Origin: Candidatus Omnitrophota bacterium | GTDB lineage: Bacteria > Omnitrophota > Gorgyraeia > 2-01-FULL-45-10 | Assembly: GCA_003142795.1 (NCBI GenBank) | Contig: PLNN01000059.1 | Span: forward strand, 36,535 to 82,221 | Direction: 5' to 3' | Length of the DNA: 45,687 bases | Part shown: piece by piece, positions 1 to 32,545 of the stretch | Numbering within the stretch: position 1 is the stretch's first letter | How the letters are laid out: every line of letters starts with the position of its first letter | The notes under the pieces: model-generated | What the model saw: only the letters and a program-made list of their open reading frames with translations | What the model was told of the DNA's origin: nothing | The model's database searches: none | Translations under genes and position numbers: made by a program

Positions 1-813
1 CATGCTTTCCGGAGAAAAAGTAAAGAGATGGCGCGGGGGCTCGAGATGAAAACAGTTCCTGCCGAACATCTTATGCGCCATACTATCTATATTCGGCACA
101 TGCATCCCCAATTCCCCGCCGGGCCTGAGGACCCTATAGCATTCTCTGGTCAGCGAGATAGGGTCGGGCATATGTTCCATCACATGATGCAGCGTTATCA
201 TATCCGCGCTCGAGTCAGGCATCTTCAATTCTTCGAAGGTCCCATTAAAAACCGGGATATTTTTCTTTTTCAGGACGGCGACTGCCACGGGATCGGTCTC
301 CACGCCAAGCACCTTCCATCCCAGATATCGCATAAATTCCAGATATTCGCCGTATCCCGCCCCTATATCTATGACGAATGAGCGCTCTTTCGCCTTCGAG
401 TGAGGCAGGAGCCCTCCAAGCTGATAGGCCGAGGCCGGGCCCAATAATGGCGTCCGAGCAATAAGCGGCCCCACCTTGCATAGTATGTGATGCTTATGGA
501 CATGCCTGTATCCGAAATGGCCGCAGAGGACGCTTGCCCTTATTACACGTTTAATGGCCGCTAAAATTTTCGAGTCGGGCGCGATATCGGGCCCGAAGGC
601 CTCTTCTTCGGAGCGGCTGCCGGTATAACATTTTCCTATATCCGCCGCGATCGGGCGGGGATCGAGCCACGCCAGGCGGCATGACGGGCAGAACCTTAGA
701 TTAAAATTTCCATCAACTATGGAAAAACGGTCCCGGAGCCCTTCATACAACAGTTCTCCGATGGACCCGCAAATTATACAATTTGGAAATCGTTCAGTCC
801 GCACCGATATCAT
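1..813 (-). CDS. Class I SAM-dependent methyltransferase with N-terminal Zn-ribbon (polysaccharide-locus type); 3' end lies outside the window
   Basis: Absent from the ORF track because there is no stop in the window. Manual translation from ATG at 813 (ATGA overlap with the flippase stop) gives MISVRTERFPNCIICGS...FCPSCRLAWLDPRP..., SAM motif VIDIGAGYGEYL, then TLHHVMEHMPDP, VLRPGG, VPNIDS and LEPPRHLFTFSPESM. Confidence 0.85.
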   Translation of the reverse strand, partial: MISVRTERFPNCIICGSIGELLYEGLRDRFSIVDGNFNLRFCPSCRLAWLDPRPIAADIGKCYTGSRSEEEAFGPDIAPDSKILAAIKRVIRASVLCGHFGYRHVHKHHILCKVGPLIARTPLLGPASAYQLGGLLPHSKAKERSFVIDIGAGYGEYLEFMRYLGWKVLGVETDPVAVAVLKKKNIPVFNGTFEELKMPDSSADMITLHHVMEHMPDPISLTRECYRVLRPGGELGMHVPNIDSMAHKMFGRNCFHLEPPRHLFTFSPESM

Positions 814-2342
814 ATATTGATATTCCTTAAGAAATCTATGACCCTTGTCCTTGCCGTACCATCAAACCCCCATCTCCATACGAGAAAGGCGTAGAGGATG
901 AAAACTGACAGCATCCCCCCGATATTCAGCGGCGACAGGAAACGCAGGTTCAGGCTCCGCAGCCACCAGAAAGCGGCGCCGCACAAAATGAACGGAAGGG
1001 CTCCGCGATAAAAAATTTTCCGGTACCATGAAACGAGCGATGTCTTGAGCAAGTCGCAGGACGCCTTATGCAGAAGCGCGGCGTCCAGCAGAACGCGCAA
1101 AAACCATGCGCATGCCGCGCCGATGCCTCCCCACCAGTAAATAAGAAGATAGGCCGCAGGCACATATAAGACCGCCTCGATAAGGTGAAAGATGGCCGGA
1201 ATATTAGGCTTATCCATCCCCTGAAGCAGGATCGCGGACGGAGCCGCCGTCGCATTTATCAATCCTGCGATGATCAGGATGTTGAGGATGCCGGAAGAGT
1301 GTTGTGCGAAATCTTCTCCTGCCCAGGCCGCCAGGAACGGTCTGCCGAAGAAACAAAAGAAGAGCACAAAAAACAGGTACGCGAACAAAAGATAGAGCGT
1401 GCTCCTGTAATGGATGTCCTCGCCCGCCTTCTCTTCGTCCGAATTCTGAAAATAGCTGAAGGTAGGGAACAGAACCGTGGAAAAAGAGGACCGCACGAGC
1501 GACAGCCTGTCCATAATAAAATACGGGATCGAATAATAGGTGAGGCTCTGCACGCTGCGCAGGGACGCCAAAAATATCTTTTCGGTATTTCCCAATACGG
1601 GCCCGACGATGCCGGAGATCGTGACAAATCCGCCGAACCTGAATAACTTTACTAATATTTTCGCGTCCCAGCTTGGCACGGACAGGAACGGCATAAGCTT
1701 GTTCGCGTTCACCCAGTAAACGGCAATACCGAGCGCCTGGATCACAAGATTGGACACAACGATCTCTCTCAACGAAAAACCGAACTTGAGGAGGGCGACT
1801 ATCGCCAATACCTGGAGCGTGCACAGAAATATGTCTATGCGGTTTAACACATCGAACCTGCTTTTGGCCTGTATGGCCCCGCTTACCACGCCCGATATGA
1901 GTAAAAAGAGGAACCCCAGCGACCCCACCCTCAACGTAAAGACGGCGATATCTTGGAGCTCCTGCGATATTTTAAATATCCTTTTGACGAGAAACGGGGT
2001 CGAGATATTGATGATCGCTATGCCGATAAGACCTATGATGAGATATATGAATATGCATGACCAGAAAGCCGAGGCGACTTTATCGTCTTCGCCTTTCGCG
2101 ACATACTGGGACATATACTTTATCGAAGCCGTATCCAGCCCCAGCTTCAGTAAAGCAAGGTAACCTATTATCACGCTGGTCAGGGCGTAAACGCCGTATA
2201 TGCTGACGGTCAGCCGGTGCACTATGAACGGCGTAGCTAAGAATGTAATGACGAGGACCCATCCCTGGCCGACCAAAGTCCAGATGATGCCCCTGATGAT
2301 ATTCTCGGCCAGATCCCCTCTTCTCTGAAATTCTCCGCTCAT
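810..2342 (-). CDS. wzx: Wzx-type oligosaccharide flippase (MOP/MATE-like superfamily)
   Basis: 510 aa with many hydrophobic segments. N-terminal pattern TPFIVHRLTVSIYGVYAL...LGLDTASIKYMS, KLFRFGG and WGGIGAACAW are typical of Wzx. Lies in a polysaccharide locus. Confidence 0.85.
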   Translation of the reverse strand: MSGEFQRRGDLAENIIRGIIWTLVGQGWVLVITFLATPFIVHRLTVSIYGVYALTSVIIGYLALLKLGLDTASIKYMSQYVAKGEDDKVASAFWSCIFIYLIIGLIGIAIINISTPFLVKRIFKISQELQDIAVFTLRVGSLGFLFLLISGVVSGAIQAKSRFDVLNRIDIFLCTLQVLAIVALLKFGFSLREIVVSNLVIQALGIAVYWVNANKLMPFLSVPSWDAKILVKLFRFGGFVTISGIVGPVLGNTEKIFLASLRSVQSLTYYSIPYFIMDRLSLVRSSFSTVLFPTFSYFQNSDEEKAGEDIHYRSTLYLLFAYLFFVLFFCFFGRPFLAAWAGEDFAQHSSGILNILIIAGLINATAAPSAILLQGMDKPNIPAIFHLIEAVLYVPAAYLLIYWWGGIGAACAWFLRVLLDAALLHKASCDLLKTSLVSWYRKIFYRGALPFILCGAAFWWLRSLNLRFLSPLNIGGMLSVFILYAFLVWRWGFDGTARTRVIDFLRNINI

Positions 2343-2343
2343 A

Positions 2344-3891
2344 TTATTTATGCCTGATCTTGTCGGTCACGTCGATCAGCGTATATACGTGTTCTTCATC
2401 CTGATAAACATAGTTCCTGTCCGGCAGCAGAGGAAAGTGGCCGCCGAAATAAAGGTTAAAGATCTCCCGGAAGGAATTCACCGGCGTTATCGATTTATAT
2501 AAATGGTTATCCGCGATGCCAGGAAGATAATAGGCGTTCAGGACGCCCGATTTATGCCTTAACTCTTCGCCTGTGGCGGTCCTCCAGTCAAAACTGTAAT
2601 GTTCGATATCGAACCTGGGAGGGAACGGCCCTTCGTCGCCTTGTAAAATAATAATGGGAGGCCGCCGCGACCTTGAGAGTATCTTAGCCACCATCTCTTC
2701 GGCCATGGTATTCGTGTATATCAGCTGGTTTATATAATTCTCTATCTCGGTCCTCTTCCCCCGGATCTTTTCGTTCACAAAGCTGCCGTCCCTGTCAAAT
2801 ACATACGGGACGTGCGGGACATAGAGATGGGCAAAGACGAATATCGGGCCTTTGATCTCCGGCATATTCCCCAATTGGTCGAACTGGTAACGGATCCTCT
2901 TCCATTCCTCCTTGTCGGGGTCGTATATGCCCAGTTTTATGAAAATGGGAAAGACCACCGTGGACCTATACAACATCATTGAAAAATCGGACAGGGTTGC
3001 CAGGTTGACATTCATGTCCGCGTATTTATTCTTGCTCGTCGGCTCCCACATCGACCCGAAATGTATGAATTTATAACCCATAGATCTCAAAATATGCCAT
3101 ACCCTGTAATCCTGGAACATCGGGTACATAAGCCTGTAATGGACTGAGGACTCTCTCATGGCAGGCGTGAGAAAACCGTCTATATACTCCATGTTTAACG
3201 ACGAGGAGAGCGAGTGGACGGTGCAGGAATAATTGGCATAGGTATCCGATGCCACATAAAAGCCCCTGCCCGAAAGATAGTCGATGAATTGGCTGTTGTC
3301 AAAACCGTAAAAGTTTTTAAGAGAGATCTCGCTGGCATATTTGTCCATGATGATATAATAGATGTCCGGAGGAGCAACCGGTTTTTTCAATGCTGCCATC
3401 TCGGCAGATTGCGTGAAAACGGCGGATCTTTTGAAACCGGCATCATAGGCCGCGTGAAGCTCGTAGCCTGCGATGCTCGCTAAAGATATCAGCACTAACG
3501 ATGCCCCTATGACGTTAAGGATCCTGGTCAGATTATCCAGCCCCACACTGGTCCTTACGATCAGATATACGATGAGTGCAAATATCGCGGCCCATATCGG
3601 CAGAAGCAGGGAATGCCTGATAACGACGTAGACGGTCGTTTCGCAAGCCATATCGTAAATATAGCCGTACAAAAAGAATAGGGTTAAAAAGGCGGAAACG
3701 ATCACCGCCGCCTTTTTGTAGTTACGCAGGAACGAGCCGCACAAGAATAGCAGGATGGACACGAGGCACAGTATGGCCGCTATCCAGAGCAGGGCCTCTT
3801 TAAAATAGACCTGTCCTATATTGTACGCGTAGAGGGCAAGCACCGGATAGATCCCGAATAAGAATGGATGCAAAATATACAGCTTCTTCAT
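2344..3891 (-). CDS. Membrane-anchored alkaline-phosphatase-superfamily (sulfatase/LTA-synthase-like) transferase, NoeB-like
   Basis: About five N-terminal TM helices followed by PDIYYIIMDKY, NYSCTVHSLSSSLNM, FVFAHLYVPHVPY and IIILQGDEG metal-site motifs. Confidence 0.7.
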   Translation of the reverse strand: MKKLYILHPFLFGIYPVLALYAYNIGQVYFKEALLWIAAILCLVSILLFLCGSFLRNYKKAAVIVSAFLTLFFLYGYIYDMACETTVYVVIRHSLLLPIWAAIFALIVYLIVRTSVGLDNLTRILNVIGASLVLISLASIAGYELHAAYDAGFKRSAVFTQSAEMAALKKPVAPPDIYYIIMDKYASEISLKNFYGFDNSQFIDYLSGRGFYVASDTYANYSCTVHSLSSSLNMEYIDGFLTPAMRESSVHYRLMYPMFQDYRVWHILRSMGYKFIHFGSMWEPTSKNKYADMNVNLATLSDFSMMLYRSTVVFPIFIKLGIYDPDKEEWKRIRYQFDQLGNMPEIKGPIFVFAHLYVPHVPYVFDRDGSFVNEKIRGKRTEIENYINQLIYTNTMAEEMVAKILSRSRRPPIIILQGDEGPFPPRFDIEHYSFDWRTATGEELRHKSGVLNAYYLPGIADNHLYKSITPVNSFREIFNLYFGGHFPLLPDRNYVYQDEEHVYTLIDVTDKIRHK

Positions 3892-5282
3892 GTGGTCCTT
3901 TCATGCCTGCGCATAAAATAAAGCTGCCTTCCGGAATCTTTAATGCGAACGGAATTAGAAATTTTGAAATGTCTTCCGAATTCGGATTCAAAAAATTCCT
4001 GCGTATAATTTGGAAATACGTCTTCGCGGCATCGCAGAAGCCGTTCGACCTGCGGATCTGTTTTCGGCACAAATTCGATTATGAGAAAATCGCAGACCTT
4101 CCGGAAGAAATCCGCGATCATGCCGAAAGGCAGGTTATTGCCGATAGCAAGGTGGTGAATAAGGGCCAGCGCCATGGCCGTATGCGCCGGGCCGCGAGAG
4201 ACAAGCGACATCCGCTCCTCGTGAGCCCATCCTAAGGCCGGGCTCGGGTTGGCCATATCAAGAAGGATAGGAAGAATGCCGGAGTCTTTGTTCTTTACGC
4301 ATTCGAGATAATTTTTTTCGACACAGGCCGGATCGATATCGAAAGAGATGATCCTGGCGCCTGCGGATGCCGCTATGCGGCTGAACGTGCCATCGTTCGC
4401 CCCGAAGTCCCAGACGCTATCAGGCCTTGTGGACCCTAAAAATTCAGCGACGATCCGTTTTTTAAAATCTAAGGCTTCCGGCGTGTAGTTGGTCTTCGTA
4501 TAATAATCGGCCCATTCCGTGCCGGATGCGTTCCACTTGAGGCCTTTTACCGCAGATTCCAGGTTATCTATAAGGCCGAGAAGCCCGAGGCGGCTCATCT
4601 TATGGCGGCCTCTATCCACGCTTTTATCGGCAAATCGCTTTTGGCTTTTGGCGTGGAGGTAAATATTGAGGAATAACGGCATATTGAAACGCGCGCTGAG
4701 AGGCAGAAGCGCCGATGCCAGATCGAGGGGAATGCCGTCTATGTAAATTCTCATCAATTGGCCCAGCCGGATATCTCTCAAGCTCATCAACGCTAATGGA
4801 GTGAGAAAATGCTGGCAAAACTGCCTGTAGGCGATCCACGGTTCCGCCTCCCGGTACTTTTCGAACGACAACGTATCTACCAATATGGGGCTATAGCCTT
4901 TGAATTGTATATTATAAGCGCTGGCGTCTTTAAGGGAGATCCCGAACCCAATAGCCCTTTTTTGGATCTTCAGGGTGGCCAGCGCGGCGTCTTTTAATTG
5001 GCTGAAAGACCATTCATACGGGTAAGATATGAAAGGTATCTTTTCGGGCCTGATGATCTTGTATGCTGTCATCGGCCCGGCAGGAGCGACAGTCGCCTCC
5101 TCGTGCGAGACCATAAGCCCTGCATTAACGAGATCTTCATAAAGGCCGGACCCCATCATCAGATCATAGTTTTCTTTATATACGTTGTTGACCTGGCGAT
5201 AGAGGCGCCCATCCTTATAAAAAATAAATCCGGCCGGATCCCTGAAAGAGCCCGGGATATTCATATTCTCATCAGGTCTCAT
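3888..5282 (-). CDS. NoeA-like protein: N-terminal kinase-like domain fused to a class I SAM methyltransferase
   Basis: SFRDPAG N-terminus, ISYPYEWSF, LKDASAYN and LVDTLSF (kinase-like catalytic and metal-binding motifs). C-terminal VWDFGANDGTFS, SFDID and LALIHH methyltransferase motifs. Confidence 0.75.
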   Translation of the reverse strand: MRPDENMNIPGSFRDPAGFIFYKDGRLYRQVNNVYKENYDLMMGSGLYEDLVNAGLMVSHEEATVAPAGPMTAYKIIRPEKIPFISYPYEWSFSQLKDAALATLKIQKRAIGFGISLKDASAYNIQFKGYSPILVDTLSFEKYREAEPWIAYRQFCQHFLTPLALMSLRDIRLGQLMRIYIDGIPLDLASALLPLSARFNMPLFLNIYLHAKSQKRFADKSVDRGRHKMSRLGLLGLIDNLESAVKGLKWNASGTEWADYYTKTNYTPEALDFKKRIVAEFLGSTRPDSVWDFGANDGTFSRIAASAGARIISFDIDPACVEKNYLECVKNKDSGILPILLDMANPSPALGWAHEERMSLVSRGPAHTAMALALIHHLAIGNNLPFGMIADFFRKVCDFLIIEFVPKTDPQVERLLRCREDVFPNYTQEFFESEFGRHFKISNSVRIKDSGRQLYFMRRHERTT

Positions 5283-5285
5283 CGC

Positions 5286-5504
5286 TTATTTTTTCCGTTT
5301 AGAAAACATTTTTTTAAAAAATTCCTTTATATTGTTCCAGAAAAGCTTGATCGCGAACAACCCCCCGAGGAATGTCGCCACGACGAGCTGGATCATGTAA
5401 CTGCCGGCCCCCAAGCCGAGATAGGCGAGCGCCTTGGCCGGAAAGACCAGGCCCAACAGGCAGTAAAGTACAAATATACCGATCGTGAATTTAAGGATCT
5501 TCAT
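5286..5504 (-). CDS. Small membrane protein, variant of the 'AY[LI]DPG[TS]GS..Q' family
   Basis: 72 aa. Signal-like N-terminus ending AKALA, then YLGLGAGSYMIQ, a TM helix and a basic tail. GGAGG-like RBS upstream. Tightly coupled to both neighbours. Confidence 0.7.
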   Translation of the reverse strand: MKILKFTIGIFVLYCLLGLVFPAKALAYLGLGAGSYMIQLVVATFLGGLFAIKLFWNNIKEFFKKMFSKRKK

Positions 5505-6877
5505 AAAATTGCCTCCTCTTCTTTGCGCAGCAGCTGCGGCAGCGATAATACGATTGCCGCTATGAACCAGAACGGCTCCATGATCTTTATAATGATAAAT
5601 GTATTGGTACTGATAGCGTTAAAGCACAGGCCGACAAATCCCGCCATGAATCCCACCGTAAGCCCCATGGCGAAATCGCTGTCCCGCACGACGTCGAACG
5701 TCAATACCTTTTTTGCCGCCTTAAAAAGTCTCATCAATACCCATACCAATAATAATAATCCCAACAGCCCCGCTTCGCATAATGTCATGAATGGCTGACT
5801 GTCTATGAAAAATTTCGCGGTGCCGTAGCCGAAGATCGGGCTTCTCGGAAATTTTTCAAACAGAACGACCTTGAAACTGTCGAGGCGCGCGCGGGGGGAT
5901 TCCTCCCACACGAGGCGGGTGCCGGTGGGCTCGTTTTCATGCCTGACCGTCGTAAATATCCTCTCTCTTACCATCTGCGGCATGAAGAATACCGACATCA
6001 GGCTCGCGGCCACCACCAGATATATCAATATCAGTTTTTTGCTTTTAGTAAAATATATAAGCGCTATTATCATCGGCACGACGGCAACATAGGACCCCCT
6101 TGACAGCGTATACAGCATCGCCCTGAACATAAATAATTCCAGCAGTATAAGGAATATCGTCAATATCGGAGATCGGCTGTATAATAAAAGGCCGCCTGTA
6201 ACGGCGATCATGAAGATCAGGTACCCCCCCAGCGTTCCGGCTTCGCCGCCGCCCCTCGTCTCGACCGGCGGGGCAACCCTGAAATAGGTAGCGCCCGATT
6301 TTATTTCCTGAGCGATAAAGATATTGGAATGAGCCGCTACCATGATAGCGGTCAGTAGAAAGACCGCGATATATATCTTTGATAATTTCAGGCTCTTCAG
6401 GCTGTCTTTTACCATGATGAAAAGCAAAAAATATTCCAGATATTTCAATATGGCAAATAAGCTGTCCTGGAGGTTTATAGTGCTGAAGATCATGGCCAGG
6501 GCCGTAGATAAAAAACAGCTTCCTACATATGAAAAATAAGGCAGCGACAGATTGGTCTTGAACGTCTCAGGGATGTTCTTCGTGAGCGCCACCTTGATGA
6601 GCCACGCCAGGATGATAACTATTAAAATAATGTCTTCCGCCCTTACGCTTATCATCCTTGCCCCGGTCCGACCCATTATGGCCTCCGGAGAAAATAGCAT
6701 CGAGAAGATGATGATGATAAGTCCTATCTCCGGACTCAATAGAGTCGGGATGAAGATGAGAAAAAATATCAGCATCCCGAGCGTCTGGGCGGAGAAACTC
6801 GATTTTGCCATAAGCGCGCTTACAGTCAGGCCTATGGCAAAGATAAATAAATATAATATGATCTTCGAGTTATTCAT
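5501..6877 (-). CDS. O-antigen ligase / Wzy_C family membrane protein (polymerase or oligosaccharyltransferase)
   Basis: 458-aa polytopic protein with TLSRGSY, a periplasmic loop containing ARL...PIFGYG, and LCEAGLLGL. Confidence 0.75.
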   Translation of the reverse strand: MNNSKIILYLFIFAIGLTVSALMAKSSFSAQTLGMLIFFLIFIPTLLSPEIGLIIIIFSMLFSPEAIMGRTGARMISVRAEDIILIVIILAWLIKVALTKNIPETFKTNLSLPYFSYVGSCFLSTALAMIFSTINLQDSLFAILKYLEYFLLFIMVKDSLKSLKLSKIYIAVFLLTAIMVAAHSNIFIAQEIKSGATYFRVAPPVETRGGGEAGTLGGYLIFMIAVTGGLLLYSRSPILTIFLILLELFMFRAMLYTLSRGSYVAVVPMIIALIYFTKSKKLILIYLVVAASLMSVFFMPQMVRERIFTTVRHENEPTGTRLVWEESPRARLDSFKVVLFEKFPRSPIFGYGTAKFFIDSQPFMTLCEAGLLGLLLLVWVLMRLFKAAKKVLTFDVVRDSDFAMGLTVGFMAGFVGLCFNAISTNTFIIIKIMEPFWFIAAIVLSLPQLLRKEEEAIL

Positions 6878-10823: not shown

Positions 10824-10838
10824 TATTCCCTTCTGCGC

Positions 10839-11645: not shown

Positions 11646-11710
11646 GCCGCCATCCGTTTCTTATATATAATATAATTACATCCTAAGCCTGATGTCTCCA
11701 TGTAAATATA

Positions 11711-17113: not shown

Positions 17114-17140
17114 GAAAAATAGGGACACATCCCATTTTTC
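17114..17140. repeat. REP-like palindrome, copy 1
   Basis: GAAAAATAGGGACACATCCCATTTTTC, a hairpin overlapping the stop codon of the 17139..18203 gene. Confidence 0.85.
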
Positions 17141-18203: not shown

Positions 18204-18216
18204 AATTATATCGGGT

Positions 18217-18690: not shown

Positions 18691-18698
18691 CCTATTTT
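18676..18698. repeat. REP-like palindrome, copy 3
   Basis: AAAATAGGGACGCATCCTATTTT, containing the transposase TAG and the peptidase ATG. Confidence 0.8.
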
Positions 18699-19357: not shown

Positions 19358-19489
19358 AGCATCTCCTATTCATTCTGCCGCCTCTATTTTTAAGCACAAT
19401 CGGCGCATCCTTTGCCTTAAGACCTGAATCTTCCCTCACTATATAAGATGCAAAAAACGACAATTTTATTGCAATTTTTTTAAAAAATA

Positions 19490-19559
19490 TAAAAAAATAG
19501 GGACACATCCTATTTTTTTATCAGTCTCTTCGGTAAAAAAATGGGATGTGTCCCTATTT
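19490..19559. repeat. Inverted REP doublet (REPIN-like), copies 4-5
   Basis: TAAAAAAATAGGGACACATCCTATTTTTTTA (19490-19520) and inverted AAAAAAATGGGATGTGTCCCTATTT (19535-19559). Confidence 0.85.
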
Positions 19560-19561
19560 AA

Positions 19562-25500: not shown

Positions 25501-28500
25501 CGCCTGTCGTTCCCTTATTTATAGTCAAGTCGCCATTAATCAGCAAATACTGGCCGGTAATGTTATCCTGGGTCCCATTGTTACCTAAGTTTACCGTAGT
25601 TGTCCCTGTAGTCTGGGTAGTCGAACCTATGTTCAGCGTAGCAACGGTTATGGTCAGCATTGAGCCTGCATCGGAGTGCCCTATATTTATTATCTTGCTC
25701 TGTCCTGCACCGAGGGTCGTGCCGAGATTCAATATATTGAACTCGGTATCAGAAGTTCCTGTAATATATGAGGTGTCGGTGCCGTTAAAGGTGACTGTGC
25801 CGTTACTATGTGTGAATGTGCCGTTATTCGTCCAGTTGCCCGCAACATTTATATTGCCTGAAGGAGCGGTTAAGGATTTGGTAGAATTAATAGTAACGTT
25901 ATAGAAAGAATTGGTGCTTGAACCGCTTATGGTGGTGGTGCCGTTAAAGGTGACTGTGCCGTTACTATGTGTGAATGTGCCGTTATTCGTCCAGTTGCCG
26001 TTAACTGATAAATTGCCGGTTGTTGAAACGAATTCTCCGTTGGATATATTAACATTCCCGGTCACCGCAATACTATTTGTTCCGCCCGATATTTTACCTG
26101 AACCTGACTGGCTAAGATTGCCCTGCACCGTTAAACCATTGGAAGTCTGCGTGCCGAAACTGACAAAAGAAGATGGATCATTCTGGTTATTGTATTGGGT
26201 GGCGATCCAGCCTGCTGAACGGGCAACCGTCGAAACCGTTGCCTCATCCATCATCCCATTCAGTAAGCGACCTGCTGAACTTTGCGCAATATAAAACTCC
26301 CCGTCTGACGAAAAGTTGCCGGACATTGCCTGAGAAACATCCGGCGTATTATTATTAACGTATATTTTCATAGAAGAACCGTCATATGTGGCGGTAACTA
26401 AATACCATGCGTTTGTGTTAAGGCCGGTAGTGCTGTCCAGTTTTATCTGGGAATTGCCATCGGAAAGAACGAATTGGAGTTGATTACTAGCGAGCGCGGC
26501 ATCCCCCATCCTGAATAAAGCGGTGTTCGTATCCCCATCCTCTTGTCCCAGTACTGTAGAAATATAAGGGTAGTTTTCCTGGAACGAAGCGATATTGATC
26601 CATGCCTGAAAGGTCAGGCTTGAACCGGATAAAGCTATAAAGCCATTGTCTATAGAAGAAGTGCTCCCATTAAAACCACCCGCCCCGTCAATCTTCCCCA
26701 CAACAACTGACGTATCAGTATTAGTCCCGTCGTAGCCATTCCATGTCGAATCTAAGGTATTGAGGTTTCCACTACTATTCGCAAGATGCCACACCGCGAG
26801 ATATCCATTAGTCCACACGCTTGTCGGGTCTGCCTGACTCGTGCAATTAGAGTTACCATAGTTCATGTAGAAAGTGGTATCTGATGTGGATGAAATATGA
26901 AATAATTTTACCCAGATATAGGCTGTATCTGACGTTGCGCCTCTTGAATAATATTCTATTTGATAGGACAACCTGTTGCCGTTTGAATCCATGAAAACAA
27001 GGTCCTGGCCCAAAGATTGGGCATGCGCGAACAGGTCTGCGTCATTGCTGATCAGAAGAAGCACGGGAAAATCGGTCAGATCGCCTGATACTAAAGTATG
27101 ATTTATGGTCATAGATTTCCTGTATGACCAGACATATAGGGTACTGCTTCCTGAATGCGTCAGGTTATAGAATGGGCTGCTGCCTATTGAGAGATCCTGC
27201 GTGCCTTCGCCGTTAAAATCCACTGTTCCCGAGTTATGCGTAAAGGTACCGCCGGTTTGCAGCCAGTTGCCGCTTACATAGAGAGTGTTGCTTGGGGCGG
27301 TCAACATGCCGTTTGCGATGACGATGTTATTTACCGTCATATTTGCGGTGGAAACCGACCAGGCTCCGCCCACTCCGTCAAAAACAACATTATAGAAACT
27401 TGAACCGCCCGTACTAATGGTTTTGCCTATAGAGATTGCGTTAAAGGTAACCGTGCTGATCCCGGCGTTAAAGCCCTGACCGCTATTGGTGTTATTATTC
27501 GTCCAGTTGCCGCCCACATTGATAGCATGTGCGTATGTTGACCCTGTGGAGACGAGTTTGCCGCCGCCGGTTGACCCTATATTAATGGTCAGGTCGCCTG
27601 TCACTGTCAGCGTCTGGGGAATCGTGTTAGTCCCGCCGGAGTACGTTCCTAAATTTACCGTAGTGACCCCTGACGTCTGGGAGGTAGAGCCGATATTCAG
27701 CGTAGTGGCTGTGATAGTCAGCGATGAGTCTGCAGTGGAATTGCCGATATTTATCGTACTGCTTTGTGCCGCACCGAGGGTCGTGCCTAAGTTCAAGGTA
27801 TAGAAGGTGGTATCTGCAGTTCCTGTAATGTAAGAGGTGCCGGTGCCGTTAAAGGTGACTGTGCCGTTACTATGTGTGAATGTGCCGTTATTTATCCAGT
27901 TGCCCGCAACATTTATATTGCCTGAAGGAGCGGTTAAGGATTTGGTAGAATTAATAGTAACGTTATAGAAAGAATTGGTGCTTGAACCGCTTATGGCGGT
28001 GGTGCCATCAAAGGTGACCGTGCCGTTATTGTGCGTGAATGTGCCGCTATTCGTCCAGTTGCCGGAAATTGTTATATTCTTGCCATTGGCATCCAGTGTG
28101 CCGGTTGTAATAGTAAGACCAATTGTGATGAAATCTGCAGGAGTTGTAAATGTCGAATTACGGTTAATGGTAAGATAATTCGTGAAATATATCATATCGG
28201 CAGCGGATTCCTGCAGCTTGTATGAATAGCTGAACGTGCCGGTTACTGTAAGGGTCTGGCCGTTCTTATCGAGCGTACCGTTTGTTATGGTAAGGTTATG
28301 GTTTACGGTAACGGCTGATGAGAGGTTAACAAGCGTTGATGTGCCGTTCATCACCACGTCGTAAAAGGGGCTTGTGCCCGCGGTAATGGATTGCTTGGCT
28401 GTTCCGTTGAATGTGACGACTGATATGCCGCAGGTGAAGCTATTGGCGACTGGGCTGTTATTTATCCAGTTACCGCCCACATTGATGACATGAGCATACG

Positions 28501-31500
28501 TTGTCCCGTAGGAGGAGAGTTTGCCGCCGCCGGTCGTTCCTGCGTTAATGGTCAGATCGCCTGTTACCGTCAGTGTCTGGACAGCCGTGCTCGCCTGTCC
28601 TAAAACCACCGTGGTGATCCCTGTTGTCTGGGAGGTCGAACCGATATTCAGCGTAGTGGCTGTGATGGTTAAAGAGGCGCTAAGCGTGGTATTTCTGATA
28701 TATATCGTTTTACTTTGTCCAGCGGTAAGAGTCGTTCCCAGGTTTAAGATATAGAAGGTGGTATTCACGGTTCCGGTAATCTGACCGACGCCGGTGCCGC
28801 CAATAGTAACCGTGCCGTTACTGTGGATGAAGGTGCCATTATTTGTCCAGGTACTGGAAAGGGTTATATTCTTGCCGTTGGCATCCAGCGTGCCGGTTGT
28901 AATAGTGAGACTGGTCACGCTGAAATCTGCAGGAGCTGTAAATGTCGAATTACGGTTAATGGTGAGATAATTCGTGAAATATATCATATCGGCAGCGGAT
29001 TCCTGCAGCTTGTATGAATAGGTGAATGTGCCGGTTACTGTAAGGGTCTGGCCGTTCTTATCGAGCGTACCGTTTGTTATGGTAAGGTTGTGATCTACGG
29101 TGACGGCTGATAGGAGCGTCACCCGCGTCGATGCGCCGTTCAGCGTCACATCGTAGAAGTGGCTTGTGCCCGCGGTAATGGATTGATTGGTTGTTCCGTT
29201 GAATGTGACTACGGAATGGCCGCAGTTAAAGCTACTTGCTACTGGGCTGTTATTTATCCAGTTGCCGCTTACATTGATGGTATGAGCATACGTTGTCCCT
29301 ACGGAGACAAGCTGTCCGCCGCCGGTCGTTCCTGCGTTAATGGTCAGGTTGCCTGTTGCTACAAGCATTTGGGCGACTGTGTTAGTCCCAGAGCTACCGA
29401 TGCCTAAATTTACCGTGGTGATACCTGTTGTCTGGGAGGTCGAGCCGATATTCAGTGTAGTGGCTACGGTGGTCAAGGCTGCGGCGGCCGCGGTATGTCC
29501 TATATCTATTGTGCTGCTCTGTCCGGCTGTAAGGGTTGTTCCTAAATTCAGGGTGTAGAATGTGGTGCCAAAGGTCCCTGTAATGTAAGAGGTGCCGGTT
29601 GTTGTAAAGGTAACCGCGGATATGCCAGCAGTGAAGCCGGCCATGCTATTATTTATCCAGTTGCCGCCCACATTGATAGCATGTGCGTATGTTGACCCTG
29701 TGGAGACGAGGTTGCCGTAGCCGGTGTTAAGGGTCAGATTGCCCGTTACCGTCAGCGTCTGGACTGCCGTGTTCGGTGTGCCATTATAACTTCCTAAATT
29801 TACCGTGGTAAACCCTGTTGATCCTATATTTAATGTAGTGGCTGTGATTGTCAAAGATGCGCTGGTTGTGGAATTGCCGATATATATAACTTTATTCTGT
29901 CCGGTTGTAATAGTTGTCCCCAGGTTTAAGGTATAGAAGGCGGTATTTGCGGTTCCTGTAATATTAGAGCTGTTTGTGGTGTTAAAAGTAACCGTGCTAG
30001 TCCCCGCAGTGAAGGTTCCTCCGTTATTTATCCAGCTGCGTCCTACAGTAATGGTGTAGGACCCTGGAGTAAGCGCTCCAGAACCCGTTAAAGTAACATC
30101 GGTTGCTACGGTAAGCGATCCCGATGTTATTGTAACCGCTGTGGTATGCCCGGATTGAATGGTAAATGATAAGCAAGAAGCAGCAGTATCAATTGAACAT
30201 GCGTTATCGCTGGTTGATGTGAAATATACGTCATCAACGCTGGTAGGCACGCCTGCACTGCCAGCTCCTCCGTCAGTAGCAGACCAGTTACGGGTATCAC
30301 TCCACAATGTCGGCGTAGCAGAAGTTCCTAACCAATAACGAGGGGCATCCCAATTATAGCTATTGGTATCATGGTCAAGGGAAGTACCTAAAATGAGCCG
30401 TGGATCGAGATTATAAGAATCTTCGGCTCGTACGTACGCCAATTCATTGTTGCCCTGGGGATTTATGAACCACTGGACCCCTTTTTCTGAAGACTTAAGA
30501 TCGACGTAAGTTATCGTCCCGTCATCTTCGAGTCTGCCGCTAAAATGGAATACGCCGGTAATAGTATAGGTGTGCCCTGCTTCAAAATATATGGTCTTAC
30601 CCGGAATAGTACAGTATAGGCTTGAGAATGTTATATCGCCGTAGAGATATATTGATCCTTCTCCTACGAGATTGATATGATCAGCTGTTAAAGTGAGTTT
30701 TGTATCGTGGTTGTAGAGTATATAGCCGAAGCCGCCATCGGGCGGGCCTGTTATCAATATGCTTGTTCCTATACCTGTGGACGTAGCTATATCTATGTCG
30801 CCTGTGGTTCTCTGTATTATCAGATTGGCAGTATCTATGTTTAGAGGGTTCATATAACTTCCGAACCTCTCACCTATTACCCTGAAAGTATTGGCACTTA
30901 TTGCGATAGCGCTAGTGGTAGTTACCAGGTCATCGCCTTTTAATGTCACATCGGCTGTTTTTAAGTATGTTGCTTTTAAATTATCCCCTTCCAGGGTCGT
31001 AAACTGGTCGCCGATTGGGCTTTGATATGAACTTGATATGGTTATTATCGGGCCTGGCTGGTAAATAGATAGCGTGGGTGTATCTGTAATAATATTGTTT
31101 ATAGTTGTGCCTGTAATATTTAGTGAATCGGCTGATATAATGGCGTTATTAGAGCATATTATATTAATGGCTTGAAGGGTAAGGGATCCAGAGCTACTCT
31201 TTATGTCGGCTTCTACGTTTATACTCTGTCCGGCCTTTATAGTAGTATCCCCTACAAGCGTAAGAGTGTTCTTTACGTTTACATTGGTATCTGACTCGAC
31301 ATTAATGGTCCCGCCTGGGGCCTCCATAGTGCCGGAGACCTGTATGTTATTATCGGCCACTATGCTAATAACTCCGTTCACATTCTCAAGCTTTGTGGCC
31401 TTTACTATGCCTTCCTGGTTAACGGCATTGGTGAATATGCCTGAAGCTGTCTTGGCGGTCATAATGACCTGGTGGGCCGTGATAGAGTGGTCGGAGGCAT

Positions 31501-32305
31501 TCTTCACGGCATCAGTAACATTCTTGCCTGTCACAAGATCAGCTACATAACCTGTGGTCTTATCATTGACTTCTACCTGTATCAGGCCTCTTTGGTCAAA
31601 GCTTACAGTGGCCTTATCGCCTGAGGCAAGAGTCACTCTGCCCGCACTCGCCATTATAATGCCCCTATTCTCAACAGCTGAAGCTACTAAGGCCACAGAG
31701 CCGGTTGCGGTGATAGTGCCTTCGTTAAGTATCTGGGAATATTGCGTGCCTGTTAGATGCTGTAATATATTATTTGGATTATTAGGGTTATTAGGATCTA
31801 TAAGCATAAAATTAGAACTTAAGAAGTTGGCTGCCGGTATGTTCATCGTGGTGGCAACAAAGTTATTAACGTTGACATTGGCTCCTGGAGCTATATACAG
31901 GCCTGCCATATTCTGGAATACGAATGTCCCTGTGGAGCAATTCACTGTGCCATACCAGGCGCTGGCTCCATTAGCGGCATCGACTTGGGCCAAAAACCTC
32001 CAGCTTGGATCCTGCATGTTGATGTTTAGGGTGGAATATTGTCCCAGGTTGGCGGTTGAAAAAGTCATGACACTGGCTGCTTGAGTTGCGGTTAATGTCA
32101 TGCTGGCGGTTGTGATGTTGGTCTGGGGATTCGTAACTTGCGAGGTTGCAACGCCTACGGTGCCGGCATTTGTTACCTGCGGAAGCTCTGTAGCCGTGGG
32201 CACAGGGGCCGTAACCGGCACTGTGCTATCCGGAGCATAACATGGTCCGGCCCAAGCGCCTATAATCGCAAGACCCAGAATTGTAAGTATCAGTAACTTT
32301 TTCAT
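19562..32305 (-). CDS. Giant secreted adhesin-like protein (4247 aa): haemagglutinin-type N-terminal domain, beta-helix repeats, DUF2341 + LamG-like, GGxFT beta-propellers
   Basis: Sec signal peptide. TPS-like region (GTFVFQNMAGLYIAPGANVNVNNFVATT, ILNEGTI, VENRGII). Many GNWxNxGTFTHxNGTVTFNGT repeats. DUF2341-like WSYRK...DFPVLL...IWVK...FYMNYGN (~27130-26850). LamG-like (~26800-26180). Repeated [LV]YVGGxFTxAGG...IAKWxG (~22000-19890). Confidence 0.85.
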   Translation of the reverse strand: MKKLLILTILGLAIIGAWAGPCYAPDSTVPVTAPVPTATELPQVTNAGTVGVATSQVTNPQTNITTASMTLTATQAASVMTFSTANLGQYSTLNINMQDPSWRFLAQVDAANGASAWYGTVNCSTGTFVFQNMAGLYIAPGANVNVNNFVATTMNIPAANFLSSNFMLIDPNNPNNPNNILQHLTGTQYSQILNEGTITATGSVALVASAVENRGIIMASAGRVTLASGDKATVSFDQRGLIQVEVNDKTTGYVADLVTGKNVTDAVKNASDHSITAHQVIMTAKTASGIFTNAVNQEGIVKATKLENVNGVISIVADNNIQVSGTMEAPGGTINVESDTNVNVKNTLTLVGDTTIKAGQSINVEADIKSSSGSLTLQAINIICSNNAIISADSLNITGTTINNIITDTPTLSIYQPGPIITISSSYQSPIGDQFTTLEGDNLKATYLKTADVTLKGDDLVTTTSAIAISANTFRVIGERFGSYMNPLNIDTANLIIQRTTGDIDIATSTGIGTSILITGPPDGGFGYILYNHDTKLTLTADHINLVGEGSIYLYGDITFSSLYCTIPGKTIYFEAGHTYTITGVFHFSGRLEDDGTITYVDLKSSEKGVQWFINPQGNNELAYVRAEDSYNLDPRLILGTSLDHDTNSYNWDAPRYWLGTSATPTLWSDTRNWSATDGGAGSAGVPTSVDDVYFTSTSDNACSIDTAASCLSFTIQSGHTTAVTITSGSLTVATDVTLTGSGALTPGSYTITVGRSWINNGGTFTAGTSTVTFNTTNSSNITGTANTAFYTLNLGTTITTGQNKVIYIGNSTTSASLTITATTLNIGSTGFTTVNLGSYNGTPNTAVQTLTVTGNLTLNTGYGNLVSTGSTYAHAINVGGNWINNSMAGFTAGISAVTFTTTGTSYITGTFGTTFYTLNLGTTLTAGQSSTIDIGHTAAAAALTTVATTLNIGSTSQTTGITTVNLGIGSSGTNTVAQMLVATGNLTINAGTTGGGQLVSVGTTYAHTINVSGNWINNSPVASSFNCGHSVVTFNGTTNQSITAGTSHFYDVTLNGASTRVTLLSAVTVDHNLTITNGTLDKNGQTLTVTGTFTYSYKLQESAADMIYFTNYLTINRNSTFTAPADFSVTSLTITTGTLDANGKNITLSSTWTNNGTFIHSNGTVTIGGTGVGQITGTVNTTFYILNLGTTLTAGQSKTIYIRNTTLSASLTITATTLNIGSTSQTTGITTVVLGQASTAVQTLTVTGDLTINAGTTGGGKLSSYGTTYAHVINVGGNWINNSPVANSFTCGISVVTFNGTAKQSITAGTSPFYDVVMNGTSTLVNLSSAVTVNHNLTITNGTLDKNGQTLTVTGTFSYSYKLQESAADMIYFTNYLTINRNSTFTTPADFITIGLTITTGTLDANGKNITISGNWTNSGTFTHNNGTVTFDGTTAISGSSTNSFYNVTINSTKSLTAPSGNINVAGNWINNGTFTHSNGTVTFNGTGTSYITGTADTTFYTLNLGTTLGAAQSSTINIGNSTADSSLTITATTLNIGSTSQTSGVTTVNLGTYSGGTNTIPQTLTVTGDLTINIGSTGGGKLVSTGSTYAHAINVGGNWTNNNTNSGQGFNAGISTVTFNAISIGKTISTGGSSFYNVVFDGVGGAWSVSTANMTVNNIVIANGMLTAPSNTLYVSGNWLQTGGTFTHNSGTVDFNGEGTQDLSIGSSPFYNLTHSGSSTLYVWSYRKSMTINHTLVSGDLTDFPVLLLISNDADLFAHAQSLGQDLVFMDSNGNRLSYQIEYYSRGATSDTAYIWVKLFHISSTSDTTFYMNYGNSNCTSQADPTSVWTNGYLAVWHLANSSGNLNTLDSTWNGYDGTNTDTSVVVGKIDGAGGFNGSTSSIDNGFIALSGSSLTFQAWINIASFQENYPYISTVLGQEDGDTNTALFRMGDAALASNQLQFVLSDGNSQIKLDSTTGLNTNAWYLVTATYDGSSMKIYVNNNTPDVSQAMSGNFSSDGEFYIAQSSAGRLLNGMMDEATVSTVARSAGWIATQYNNQNDPSSFVSFGTQTSNGLTVQGNLSQSGSGKISGGTNSIAVTGNVNISNGEFVSTTGNLSVNGNWTNNGTFTHSNGTVTFNGTTTISGSSTNSFYNVTINSTKSLTAPSGNINVAGNWTNNGTFTHSNGTVTFNGTDTSYITGTSDTEFNILNLGTTLGAGQSKIINIGHSDAGSMLTITVATLNIGSTTQTTGTTTVNLGNNGTQDNITGQYLLINGDLTINKGTTGGGVFVSVSNLGNEIDILGNWTNNGTFTPGHSIVYFDNGAIYGSATHQFYNISFSALVAPSSMSVSGNWRNDGTFTHSNGIVIFNGNTTISGATTTTFYNITITGTLTGRSSGINIEHNWTNNGTFTHNNGTVNFNGTSTSNITGTANTSFYTLNLGASLGLGQTKIVNIGHSAAGSSLEIDAYLLFIGQGAPFTGTVTVNLGNNGSQDNTAAQTLSITNLFLYSPSSLVSRSTVNHAINISSGDLGSTFSAGRSTVTLNGTAMQTETNVSFYNLRISNTSVSGVRGSGTITILSGGTLTVDSGKLFDLAANNATLSVSGSISNSGIIKIGTATPTIPNSTVGNFNYVSNSATVQQATYGDLNLSGTGVYTAAAGTITVGSGNTLTIASGATLDLSANNTILSAGSATISNSGIIKVGTGTLTIPNSTVGSFTFVNTNTIPQATYAALVIDASGKTLTASAFSANSINHTAGTLSSTGNLTINSTGTPGAFIFNTLTGPAFQGTAYALSIGASTRPASVTLNGAVSNFLNAVNVYATGNVTQNSTISGGGAVGLTVTLSSTVSGNVNINSSIAVNSSGSGSTVTISAASGTVTITSSGSISIGHGNGNDLISISASGDISQNGSISLIGSGAPGSESITISSSGGNITQNANISCNTSTTNTVTITATNGHIYGNNSSTITATPTGTITLSAGSGKDIGKAGGQNLLVNAATLTAISGNHPNICITNAGSASLSVGTMSNTTTTTIDYNKALTLGSITVTGASLTVGGTYQPTSLNTSGASATTITMTTIGALTATGTLTSTTGDISLTSEGASTLQAVTSAGALTLSKYATAATYTVAVYTISSTGTLTISSGATLTCSGATAIHVGGNWVNSGTFNRSTSTVTFNGATAHTISPGSSSFYNIIFNNASGSWTMNSNLTATNDITITNGGLILGDYGVFVGHVLSIDISGSGSATWNENQRKTFYDTGNSKYWAFYYTGSGVQYAYSTDTSTWTTVSTLGGSFTTPTFTVAYGAGYAVVATVNGYNIVLNKGAVSATSIGFGSEVTVFSGTSDGDYYSKPTLAIGTDNYVWAAASHYVQGTYYQVNVKKSTNVVSGDISAWPTTAVKVGESSQTLSDIVLLPGASGTMNILASGISNNITHYYYNGTNWTEPNDGGDYAWFAFPYVDLNGAVYAMIIWNGNLYVGGDFTTAGGSAINHIAEWNGSAWVDLAGGVNGSVRALTTSSAYGGNYLFVGGLFTTAGSGQTDVNYIAMWNGTSWYALGGAGNEGTNGPVYALATSITYYDIYVGGAFTTAGGNNFNYVATYNYDGGGWSATGAYGSVNGTVRALKVTAGSSYGQEALFAGGDFTIAYGYHGEQIAANRIAVSDNAGSGSNYWDPVGDGFNGTVYAIDGTDTSNVYAGGDFTNAGSSSVNYIAKWDGNSWSALGLGMNGAVRAILYDSGSDYLFVGGDFTTADNNSANHIALRHNDTWSALDTGMNASVRAIARDVNNYVCAGGDFTQSSGVNTSYLSIYSGGITWSPITPASGAIGTNGLVYAMAVLGTDIYVGGNFTTAGGLTVNRIAKYTPSTGTWAALIDNGHNGLNSLVKALVVIDGKLYIGGGFSATSDNAITLNRFAMWDGSWHAFVYSGNTGVNSYVNTMATDGTDLYVGGYFTDAGGIAAADRIAKWTVSTSTWSALGNGLNNYVNTIVLSGSDVYVGGGFTKTGDNVTTLNYIAKYNGSWNALTYNGNTGVNSVVNAIAVVDATHVYVGGFFTLAGGVTNPNYIAKWNGSSWSALGTGMNNSVRTLVILNSIIYVGGDFTTANGVTVNRAAKYDPSNSTFYALNAGNDVGFSSGGVYTLLVNGNDIYAGGNFIDVKGISSGYIAKYIPTGAVDVGSNVPISAVMDSNHNVNLIYTNTSNQLMYRQFNAALSSWSSAVTLYAGIVTGNPTLSINNAGNTLYAFWDTSSSIYGMNGTVGSGTPTWGSSSVRRGILTN
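25777..27996. repeat. Near-identical 156-bp intragenic duplication (25777-25932 and 27841-27996)
   Basis: By-eye comparison shows only about two mismatches. A third partial copy lies at ~25938-25999. Confidence 0.8.
28071..29089. repeat. Intragenic tandem duplication with 792-bp (264-aa) period
   Basis: 28071-28297 matches 28863-29089 closely. The protein repeat LTITNGTLDKNGQTLTVTGTFxYSYKLQESAADMIYFTNYLTINRNSTFT occurs twice. Confidence 0.8.
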
Positions 32306-32316
32306 AACGCACTTCC

Positions 32317-32334
32317 GTTTAACTGCTGTTTAAC
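32317..32334. promoter_or_regulatory. Tandem GTTTAAC boxes upstream of the giant gene start (candidate operator)
   Basis: GTTTAAC at 32317-32323 and 32328-32334 (11-bp period). The same heptamer sits in both upstream promoter spacers. Confidence 0.45.
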
Positions 32335-32359
32335 GCGCAAACCAAAAAAAATAACTTTA

Positions 32360-32545
32360 CTATTTAATTCCGCTTACGTAACGTGTCCTTACTCCATCCA
32401 TATCTTCAATAAATATTCTAAGTAAATAATTCATGACCTCGCTTACGTCTTTCTTGTGCTCATTGCAAAAAGATTTTATACTATCTTCGACCATCTTAGG
32501 CGTCCTGCACGCCAGAAAACCATCGCAATGCCTTACTTTTTTCAT
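32360..32545 (-). CDS. Small putative ribbon-helix-helix DNA-binding protein
   Basis: 61 aa with a strong AGAGGAG RBS. Strand FLACRTP, helix KMVEDSIKSFCNEH, then KDVSEVMNYLLRIFIE, which fits a CopG/Arc-like pattern. Confidence 0.55.
   Translation of the reverse strand: MKKVRHCDGFLACRTPKMVEDSIKSFCNEHKKDVSEVMNYLLRIFIEDMDGVRTRYVSGIK

Follow-up and report, generated by a model that had tools for sequence, protein, structure and literature searches.

Why would a cassette that builds a modified peptide stand in the same run of genes as the machinery that assembles and exports a polysaccharide? The question is posed by a stretch of DNA from a Candidatus Omnitrophota bacterium (assembly GCA_003142795.1, contig PLNN01000059.1, positions 36,535 to 82,221), whose 45,687 nucleotides we call the window. 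Its minus strand carries a set of peptide-maturation genes (18690 to 11711) that ends 65 bp short of wza (gap at 11646-11710), where a polysaccharide locus begins that runs from 11645 to beyond the window start, over about 28 kb. An earlier note, made from the sequence of the window, had joined both modules and an adjoining giant secreted protein in a possible single surface-assembly system. Comparison across genomes bears out one half of that idea: the linkage between cassette and polysaccharide locus recurs in relatives, whereas the giant protein is unlinked in any relative examined. On balance we favor an explanation in which selection keeps the two modules together and the matured, exported peptide acts with the polysaccharide at the cell surface, with the giant protein and the gene for a REP-associated Y1 transposase (RAYT) as mere neighbors.

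The linkage is closest at hand in the window's own family. Its Wzc, searched against 40 family genomes (that of the window included), has counterparts at 44-73% identity in five others, and in four of these (G434, G428, G013 and G019; G and L numbers are our handles for genomes and loci) the stretch immediately upstream of wza holds NTP_transf_5 and further cassette genes, just as it does in the window; the G434 contig ends after its precursor gene. The earlier note had looked to relatives for a conserved linkage of all three parts, and what these genomes keep is that between the peptide and the polysaccharide genes, in four of the five, and not that of the giant protein. In G019 the slot upstream of wza (L118, on G019:C49) is taken by another radical-SAM cassette whose accessory genes are the same. 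It is composed of an S26-NTP_transf_5 fusion, an ABC transporter, a ScmC-like gene, three radical-SAM genes that are divergent, PqqD, and a short precursor that is rich in Cys and has a WxxPxI leader. The SynChlorMet (Scm) cassette of G019 (L013/L014, on G019:C5) adjoins close orthologues of the distal genes of the window's locus (DegT at 381 bits, GT4 at 363, WbqC at 324, and GT9), and the two G019 cassettes may flank both ends of one polysaccharide locus split over two contigs. As a separate observation, the unlinked ScmF gene of G006 (L004/L016, on G006:C21) contains two in-frame TAA stops; this is the only family genome with an Scm cassette off the export module.

The same association is seen across the phylum. 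ScmF occurs in 15 of 401 Omnitrophota genomes, scoring over the cut-off of its model in three, and 12 of the 20 distinct Omnitrophota Scm loci abut genes of this polysaccharide locus, at differing positions: upstream of wza (the window, L019, L103 and L106), between the HD-GYP gene and wza (G025), or on the same strand past GT4-WbqC-DegT, at the distal end (the family of G422, G387 and G219). An orthologue of the Wzy_C protein is present in 59 of the 401 genomes, namely in 8 of the 15 that have ScmF as against 51 of the 386 that lack it. NTP_transf_5 is more widespread (160 of 401), and among the places listed it lies within 15 kb of Wzy_C on the same contig in at least 24 of the 59 Wzy_C-positive genomes, whose assemblies are fragmented; none of 150 listed places of the control gene PheS fell within 15 kb of a listed NTP_transf_5 place when the two were compared by hand. 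When 16 loci with both Wzy_C and NTP_transf_5 were examined, in 14 the export module proved to enclose PqqD, one to three radical-SAM genes, a ScmC-like gene, an ABC transporter, and S26 and/or NTP_transf_5; of the other two, one is cut by a contig end and one has no PqqD and ScmC matches. Seven of these loci have the cassette inserted between wza and wzc, a layout that Pfam confirms for L138, from the window's own family, and eight of the 16 encode short, basic, three-Cys precursors with a KKxYxKPx leader.

Does the association extend beyond Omnitrophota? ScmF and S26-NTP_transf_5 loci number more than 555 in the GTDB species set. Among the 80 best ScmF loci from species-representative genomes, 13 hold Wza, Wzc, the ATPase, HD-GYP or Wzy_C, the proportion being 7 of 27 where full 10-kb flanks are available. 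In L029 the ATPase, HD-GYP, Wza, Wzc, Wzy_C, NTP_transf_5, ScmE, ScmF, ScmC and S26 genes all occur together; L039, L042 and L043 are further linked examples, in L087 the two sets are interleaved, and Wzy_C orthologues stand beside the cassette in L029, L039 and L042. In ten host genomes the export-module genes number 1-10 copies per 1.2-8.7 Mb (2-10 matches for the ATPase family, 1-9 for Wza), and with copy numbers this low adjacency by chance would be expected at roughly 1-3% per locus. A function-blind clustering of the 1082 open reading frames (ORFs) in the 80 loci recovered the cassette itself (radical SAM in 73 loci, S24/S26 in 34, NTP_transf_5 and ScmC in 32 each, ABC and PqqD in 30 each), and the commonest annotated neighbors outside it were Wzc (seven loci), the ATPase and a WecA-like GT4 (four each), and HD-GYP and Wzy_C (three each). 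The cassette and the Wza/Wzc/ATPase/HD-GYP/Wzy_C locus are thus linked far above chance within the family, within Omnitrophota and in other phyla. That the linked cassette adjoins or enters the locus, yet does so at varying positions, fits what selection for linkage would predict.

What does the cassette make? Profile searches with Pfam and NCBIfam, which also supplied the labels for the other ORFs of the window, suggest an Scm-type peptide-maturation cassette resting on the five-gene core of the linear polyphosphorylated peptide (LPP) clusters described in Bacillota. Its genes, like all those described below, lie on the minus strand. Upstream comes an S26 leader peptidase of the archaeal/SipW type (18217-18690, 157 residues; TIGR02228 at 63.6 bits against a cut-off of 51.85, with a weak PF10502 match). 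It has no N-terminal membrane anchor, and its translation contains Ser14 (GKSMLP), His62 (THRV) and Asp81 (GDN), which we assign as putative catalytic residues by analogy to S29, H68 and D93 of LppS. We dropped the idea that this peptidase acts outside the membrane after export, LppS cleaving cell-free with a recognition element and the window enzyme being anchorless. A radical-SAM/SPASM maturase resembling ScmF follows (17139-18203, 354 residues; TIGR04251 at 337.5 bits, cut-off 400; PF04055 and PF13186), with the cluster motif CNLKCRHC and orthologues at 37-62% identity; the ScmF locus closest to it belongs to a single-cell genome from Omnitrophota. The stand-alone PqqD protein, a recognition element for peptides made on the ribosome and modified after translation (RiPPs), is encoded at 16828-17097 (89 residues; PF05402 at 59.8 bits); its best NCBIfam match is the lasso PqqD chaperone NF033536, at 45 bits against a cut-off of 80, and it reaches 28 bits with the ScmD model (cut-off 100). 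The second maturase is a PqqD-radical-SAM/SPASM fusion resembling ScmE (15497-16831, 444 residues; PF05402, PF04055 and PF13186; TIGR04250 at 165.9 bits, cut-off 400).

Downstream of the precursor gene (15095-15460) lie three candidate tailoring and export genes. An HprK-like kinase of the short ScmC form (14569-15102, 177 residues) keeps an intact P-loop (GVSGAGKST) of the PEPCK_ATP type and matches TIGR04249 at 34 bits (cut-off 125) and TIGR04352 (HprK_rel_A) at 24 bits. An MsbA-like ABC exporter without a peptidase domain (12837-14585, 582 residues; PF00664 and PF00005) scores about 245-260 bits with the NCBIfam MsbA and NHLM-type exporter models, below their cut-offs, and a protein of the NTP_transf_5 nucleotidyltransferase fold (11711-12874, 387 residues; PF14907 at 168 bits) carries the metal motif DVD. 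The best NCBIfam models of the two maturases and the P-loop protein are ScmF, ScmE and ScmC, all below the curated cut-offs, and PapB, StsB and AlbA are weaker matches of the maturases. The motifs expected of such enzymes are kept throughout: the radical-SAM CxxxCxxC, the P-loop, the Ser/His/Asp of the peptidase and the DVD of NTP_transf_5. In relatives the peptidase and the nucleotidyltransferase can be a single protein; S24/S26-NTP_transf_5 fusions of 510-569 residues occur in L118 (8556-10265), L138 (12418-13950), L125 and L132, which argues that NTP_transf_5 acts on the peptide. Sequence searches of the PDB with Wzy_C, NTP_transf_5 and ScmC returned nothing useful.

The candidate substrate is a Cys-rich, ScmA-like peptide of 121 residues. 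A basic N-terminus leads into the motif Y-V-P-P-L-V, of the form YxxPx[LIV], and into a Gly/Ser/Thr-rich core of about 95 residues with nine CxxG repeats spaced 8-12 residues apart. A scan for this arrangement, defined as [YFW]xxPx[LIVMFA] with three or more CxxG after it, picked out 81 ORFs distributed over 65 of 105 loci, nearly all of them beside maturases and a few of them false positives. In an alignment of 36 precursors Tyr7 and Pro10 are invariant, and the window precursor shares both along with the Cys and Gly columns; the ScmA model TIGR04252 matches 15 of the 36 at E<=1, the window precursor not being among them. A word-index search for homologues returned the precursor itself and one relative at 60% identity, the same identity as that of the G434 orthologue. 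A profile built from the alignment matched 1909 representative proteins (clusters at 50% identity) at E<=0.001. Proteins of 770-1843 residues (P0006-P0009, P0016 and P0146) are also matched, in 5-10 stretches each that are confined to the part with the CxxG repeats; large proteins of CxxG repeats or low-complexity noise may account for these matches.

Would the PqqD protein hold this leader? The predicted complex of PqqD with precursor residues 1-45 scored 0.47, against 0.00 for the best control, with a partner pLDDT (predicted local distance difference test) of at least 52 and runs that agree in at least 92% of contacts. In a benchmark, 116 of 157 solved complexes and 2 of 215 mismatched pairs came up to this mark; scores of 0.60 or less took in 18 of the 157 solved complexes and both passing mismatches, and a pass in this range is oftener wrong than right unless binding is likely beforehand. 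The comparative evidence had made binding likely here, and the predicted complex lends it weak support.

The second module reads, from its gene content, as a Wzx/Wzy-dependent polysaccharide pathway, its locus uniting the flippase, Wzy_C, Wzc, Wza and glycosyltransferases; the ORFs of at least 110 residues that we examined in it did not include an identifiable priming transferase. Next to the cassette stands the Wza-type outer-membrane export protein (10839-11645, 268 residues; PF02563 at 91 bits plus SLBB; TIGR03027 at 131.6 bits, cut-off 180), followed by a Wzc-type co-polymerase and tyrosine autokinase (8853-10823, 656 residues; PF13807 and PF13614; TIGR01007 at 156 bits, cut-off 108) that has a Walker A GKS and a C-terminal tyrosine cluster, YYYYYRRYY. 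The ExeA-like AAA_22 ATPase (8011-8841, 276 residues; TIGR03015 at 219.1 bits, cut-off 324.5) is 51% identical to the cassette-linked copy of G025, compared with 34-40% to its two paralogues in its own genome. The HD-GYP domain protein (6903-8027, 374 residues; PF13487 at 74 bits) keeps HHE...GYP and has YD in place of the HD dyad; the residue there is Y, C, S or H across 12 orthologues encoded in linked loci, and many such proteins may be degenerate binders of cyclic di-GMP rather than phosphodiesterases. Wzy_C, a membrane protein of the O-antigen ligase/polymerase family (5501-6877, 458 residues; PF04932 at 34 bits), is present as a single copy in the window's genome. In L138, which has the cassette between wza and wzc, an OmpA/LysM and a BamE-like protein (5033-6379) precede the ExeA-like ATPase, a pair that recalls the peptidoglycan-binding partners of ExeA.

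Are the two modules transcribed as one? Among the sequencing runs listed for the stretch none is of RNA. From the peptidase gene to Wzy_C neighboring genes overlap or lie 1-65 bp apart, and no terminator-like hairpin is present on the minus strand in the 65-bp gap. The two best promoter-like matches on the minus strand, each with 11 of 12 consensus positions, fall at 15463-15491 (TTGACA, 17 nt, TAAAAT), inside the 36-bp gap before the precursor gene, and at 11705-11734 (TTGACA, 18 nt, TG-TATATT), at the end of the NTP_transf_5 gene upstream of wza. These are consensus matches only, and region-wide there is no excess of them (23, against 18.6 +/- 3.8 in shuffles). Read-through combined with an internal promoter is the simplest reading and is not evidence either way.

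A working sequence of events can be proposed from the enzyme classes and from analogy to better-studied clusters. The PqqD recognition domain would hold the 121-residue precursor by its YxxPx[LIV] leader while the two radical-SAM/SPASM enzymes cross-link the nine spaced cysteines, most likely into thioether bridges, a chemistry we assume from the enzyme class. The HprK-like kinase would phosphorylate a serine, and NTP_transf_5 might then add a sugar or nucleotide to the phosphate. The SipW-type peptidase, aided by the PqqD protein, would remove the leader, and the MsbA-like pump would carry the product across the inner membrane. Once exported, the peptide could become a component of the capsule or matrix, or be decorated by the sugar enzymes of the locus. 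Of these steps, joint action with the polysaccharide at the surface is the one for which the linkage is the whole argument, and from the linkage we consider it the most likely role.

How well does this stand against other explanations? The two modules might be neighbors without a shared function, the product being a free antimicrobial or competition peptide brought beside polysaccharide genes by variable, horizontally exchanged regions or by shared stationary-phase or biofilm regulation. We regard this as rather unlikely, and the evidence pulls both ways. ScmF is patchy (15 of 401 genomes); precursor cores are hypervariable and often multi-copy, which is also typical of antibiotic and signaling peptides; a RAYT gene stands at the cassette edge in three loci; promoter-like sites precede both the precursor gene and wza; and in 67 of the 80 cross-phylum Scm loci not one of the five export-module genes appears in the DNA examined. 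In the accessible text of the paper describing them, the patchy history of LPP clusters is likewise taken as typical of conflict genes (Popov et al., PMC13381572). Mere neighbors would hardly be expected, however, at four positions of the same orthologous locus, including between wza and wzc, nor would different radical-SAM cassettes be expected to share their accessory genes and their slot, as in G019; the adjacency is far over both the PheS control and the copy-number expectation, and no immunity-like gene is seen in the window by Pfam and NCBIfam, just as the earlier note had observed. The peptide is probably not a free-standing antibiotic, and a surface or glycan-linked component is a plausible alternative. 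Several of the points just listed, the 67 loci and the hypervariable cores among them, count against joint action at the surface as well, and others join them. The link is not obligatory, given that 51 of the 59 Wzy_C-positive Omnitrophota genomes have no ScmF and that in G006 the 10 kb upstream of the export module contain no cassette. Related genomes do not count as independent cases, and horizontal transfer may simply carry cassette and locus along together. All family scores other than those of the peptidase and the tyrosine-kinase domain fall below the curated cut-offs. The strong promoter-like site just before wza means that the modules may be transcribed separately. Deletion of the LPP NTP transferase (LppN) changed nothing in a heterologous host, where that enzyme is suspected by Popov et al. 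to need co-expressed sugar genes, and the final product and role of LPPs are described as unknown in the accessible text (PMC13381572).

Closer forms of partnership can also be imagined. The cross-linked peptide might be a covalent partner of the polysaccharide, carrying on serine a phospho-sugar, put there by the kinase and NTP_transf_5, from which a glycan is built, or to which one is attached, by the glycosyltransferases or Wzy_C, with exit through Wza. A peptide serving as primer or anchor of a capsule would explain both the cassettes found between wza and wzc and the fusion of peptidase to nucleotidyltransferase; we hold so specific a scheme to be improbable. The peptide might instead be an exported signal that tunes polysaccharide output through the Wzc autokinase or through the HD-GYP protein and the ExeA-like ATPase, a role that we judge about equally improbable. 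The ATPase and HD-GYP pair does accompany the cassette in L021, L025, L029, L087, G025 and the window, interleaved with it in L087, the variable HD dyad (Y, C, S or H in 12 orthologues) hints at a sensor and not an enzyme, and where the cassette is placed between wza and wzc, the encoded cores are short and basic, with three Cys. The same pair, however, is standard in the export module also where ScmF is absent, no receptor-like histidine kinase belongs to the conserved set, and the core in the window, at about 95 residues and repetitive, is unlike known peptide signals. Least probable of all, to a degree that makes us set it aside, is the assembly of giant secreted protein, cassette and polysaccharide locus into one surface system. 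The giant gene is contiguous with the others on the same strand, and a contig of an independent sample (X2) spans the junction between RAYT and the end of the giant gene; no tblastn match to the giant protein was found, however, in the 80 cross-phylum loci or in five family loci. Its first 1200 residues do have homologues in 18 of 39 family genomes; these lie on other contigs and are often present more than once, and none was found in G019 or G013, both of which have the cassette-polysaccharide link. RAYT stands between the giant gene and the cassette, and very large proteins are reported to be common in Omnitrophota, as far as the accessible part of that preprint goes (West-Roberts et al., 10.1101/2023.11.21.568195). 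The giant protein thus reads as a neighbor outside the conserved system, and of the explanations considered we return to that of a matured peptide acting with the polysaccharide at the surface.

The remainder of the window frames these two modules. Every long ORF from 1 to 32545 is on the minus strand, so the single-strand arrangement over about 32 kb that the earlier note had described is correct, and the same-strand block even extends about 16 kb past the window start, through glycosyltransferases, methyltransferases, DegT, a radical-SAM/SPASM gene, GT4 and WbqC, to end at thiamine genes. The radical-SAM/SPASM gene in this distal part (L099 5327-6481, on G000:C50, outside the window) encodes 384 residues and is the third of its kind, lying between DegT and GT4. 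Most of the labels given in the earlier note agree with the Pfam and NCBIfam searches, namely the giant protein, RAYT, RiPP cassette, gap, wza, wzc, ATPase, HD-GYP, Wzy_C, wzx and methyltransferase, and two do not. What had been called a regulator is an ORF of 61 residues at 32360-32545 with no family match. The supposed modification trio between Wzy_C and the flippase consists of two ORFs of 464 and 515 residues (2344-5282) that match no family over threshold and are missing from the orthologous loci of relatives; in L115 and L116 the Wzy_C and flippase genes are adjacent, and the pair is therefore a local insertion. Beyond it lie the MOP/Wzx-type flippase (810-2342) and a class I methyltransferase (1-813).

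On the other side of the cassette, the RAYT (18692-19357, 221 residues; NF047646 at 67.9 bits, cut-off 80; PF01797) has a stop codon that abuts the start codon of the S26 peptidase (18690-18692). RAYT homologues also stand at the cassette edge in L130 (11007-12065) and L048 (14943-15572), at 149 and 109 bits, and may mark how the cassette moves; RAYT is probably a neighbor and not a working part. The giant protein that follows (19562-32305, 4247 residues) is a secreted repeat protein with a Rax2 propeller, DUF2341 and weak LamG matches, its signal peptide being judged by eye. Upstream of its gene come a gene for a ThiI/NFACT-R_2-like protein and then housekeeping genes. At 41725-45687, upstream of a thrS-infC-rplT-pheST block, a protein of at least 1320 residues with an HATPase_c domain and a weak GNAT match runs off the window end.

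The host assembly comprises 1.94 Mb in 70 contigs and is 92.3% complete. A single contig of sequencing run X1, which may be the source sample, covers 10474-20219, and among the matches listed no contig of an independent sample bridges the 65-bp gap. Another X1 contig matches up to 11661, inside the gap between wza and NTP_transf_5, and then diverges, and positions 7126 and 12579 are joined in a single X6 record of low depth; it may be that related strains of the peat habitat are not alike at this junction.

The usual reading of a modified ribosomal peptide is that of an antibiotic or a signal. For a whole class of them, made by Scm/LPP-type cassettes that have an HprK-like kinase, NTP_transf_5 and a SipW-like peptidase, gene order forms a tie to the machinery of surface polysaccharides; the tie extends over Omnitrophota and several further Gram-negative phyla and, to go by the accessible literature, to Bacilli (PMC13381572). 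Were the peptide a part of the capsule or matrix, or a carrier of glycans, it would be a new kind of surface polymer and would supply, for the first time, a function for cassettes that have stood in catalogues for more than ten years without a product; were it a covalent partner, a ribosomal peptide would serve as the primer or anchor of a capsule. The comparative data point to cultivable carriers of linked loci, rather than the uncultured host, as the place to look for such a role, and they remove the giant protein from the model. Omnitrophota biosynthetic clusters are reported to be expressed in the Cariaco Basin, in the accessible part of that study (PMC9902471).

Which known systems does the locus resemble? 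The Scm cassette (TIGR04252 ScmA, TIGR04249 ScmC, TIGR04248 ScmD, TIGR04250 ScmE and TIGR04251 ScmF) is known by computation only, and among the papers listed in a literature search by name, accessions or gene names there was none on its product. It shares with the window two radical-SAM/SPASM enzymes, a PqqD protein, an HprK-like ScmC and a precursor with Cys repeats; the window differs in the sub-cut-off scores of ScmF, ScmE, ScmC and ScmD, in its short ScmC and in a precursor that ScmA does not match. Sactipeptides and ranthipeptides, whose products have thioether cross-links from Cys sulfur to carbon, likewise combine SPASM radical-SAM enzymes that have a recognition element or PqqD domain with Cys-rich precursors, whereas the window has at least nine spaced CxxG units, two maturases, and tailoring by a kinase and an NTP transferase. 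Tailored lasso peptides such as paeninodin and pseudomycoidin have in common with it the recognition of a [Y/W]xxP leader by PqqD, an HprK-like kinase, an NTP transferase and an ABC exporter; the uncharacterised NTP transferase PsmN is needed for the hexose on the phosphate of the phosphorylated lasso peptide pseudomycoidin (Zyubko et al. 2019, PMC6993621, in its accessible text). However, the ORFs of the window contain no Pfam or NCBIfam match to a lasso cyclase (Asn-synthetase-like) or to a B2 cysteine peptidase (transglutaminase-like), and the leader would be removed by the S26 peptidase instead. On the polysaccharide side, the loci for glycosylated surface proteins that the earlier note had invoked as precedent are the XrtA/PEP-CTERM loci, which also gather an ExeA-like ATPase (TIGR03015), a Wza-like exporter (TIGR03027), a chain-length/tyrosine-kinase protein and Wzy_C. 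The window does not belong with them: its 92.3%-complete genome has no match to an exosortase (EpsH/XrtA; PF09721), its ATPase and Wza score below the cut-offs of those families, and the peptide cassette stands where the sorted proteins would. PEP-CTERM (TIGR02595) gave no matches, but neither did it in any of the control genomes, so that this result carries no weight; by eye the C-terminus of the giant protein has no such tail.

The closest counterpart, likened here by description, is that of the LPP clusters of Bacillota (Popov et al., Nat Commun 2026, PMC13381572, again as far as the accessible text goes). They and the window share a SipW-type peptidase, a discrete PqqD, an HprK-like kinase (on weak matches in the window), an NTP transferase and an exporter resembling MsbA, as well as a YxxPx[LV] leader motif and a place within a polysaccharide locus. 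In the LPP clusters the kinase polyphosphorylates one serine, the peptidase cleaves the YxxPxVL-type leader only with the recognition element, LppS being active cell-free and the LppS-LppB-LppA complex having been predicted or solved, and expression of the clusters rises along with that of a polysaccharide gene; LPP and paeninodin clusters often lie in the capsular polysaccharide loci of Bacilli, and a role in biofilms has been speculated upon. The two differ in several respects. Of the LPP leader consensus YxxPxVLxHQxIxFETxxS the window has YxxPx[LIV] and lacks the HQxIxFETxxS part, and its host is a diderm with Wza/Wzc, whereas LPPs are called restricted to Bacillota. The window also adds two radical-SAM/SPASM enzymes and a Cys-repeat core, and its product is therefore presumably cross-linked and not linear as the LPPs are. 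No paper on a radical-SAM peptide cassette inside a Wza/Wzc locus appeared among those listed in searches of titles and abstracts, and as far as our literature searches reach three features are new: a version of the LPP core that bears radical-SAM enzymes, the spread of that version over Omnitrophota and several other phyla, and the way it is built into the Wza/Wzc/ATPase/HD-GYP/Wzy_C module, even to the point of standing between wza and wzc.

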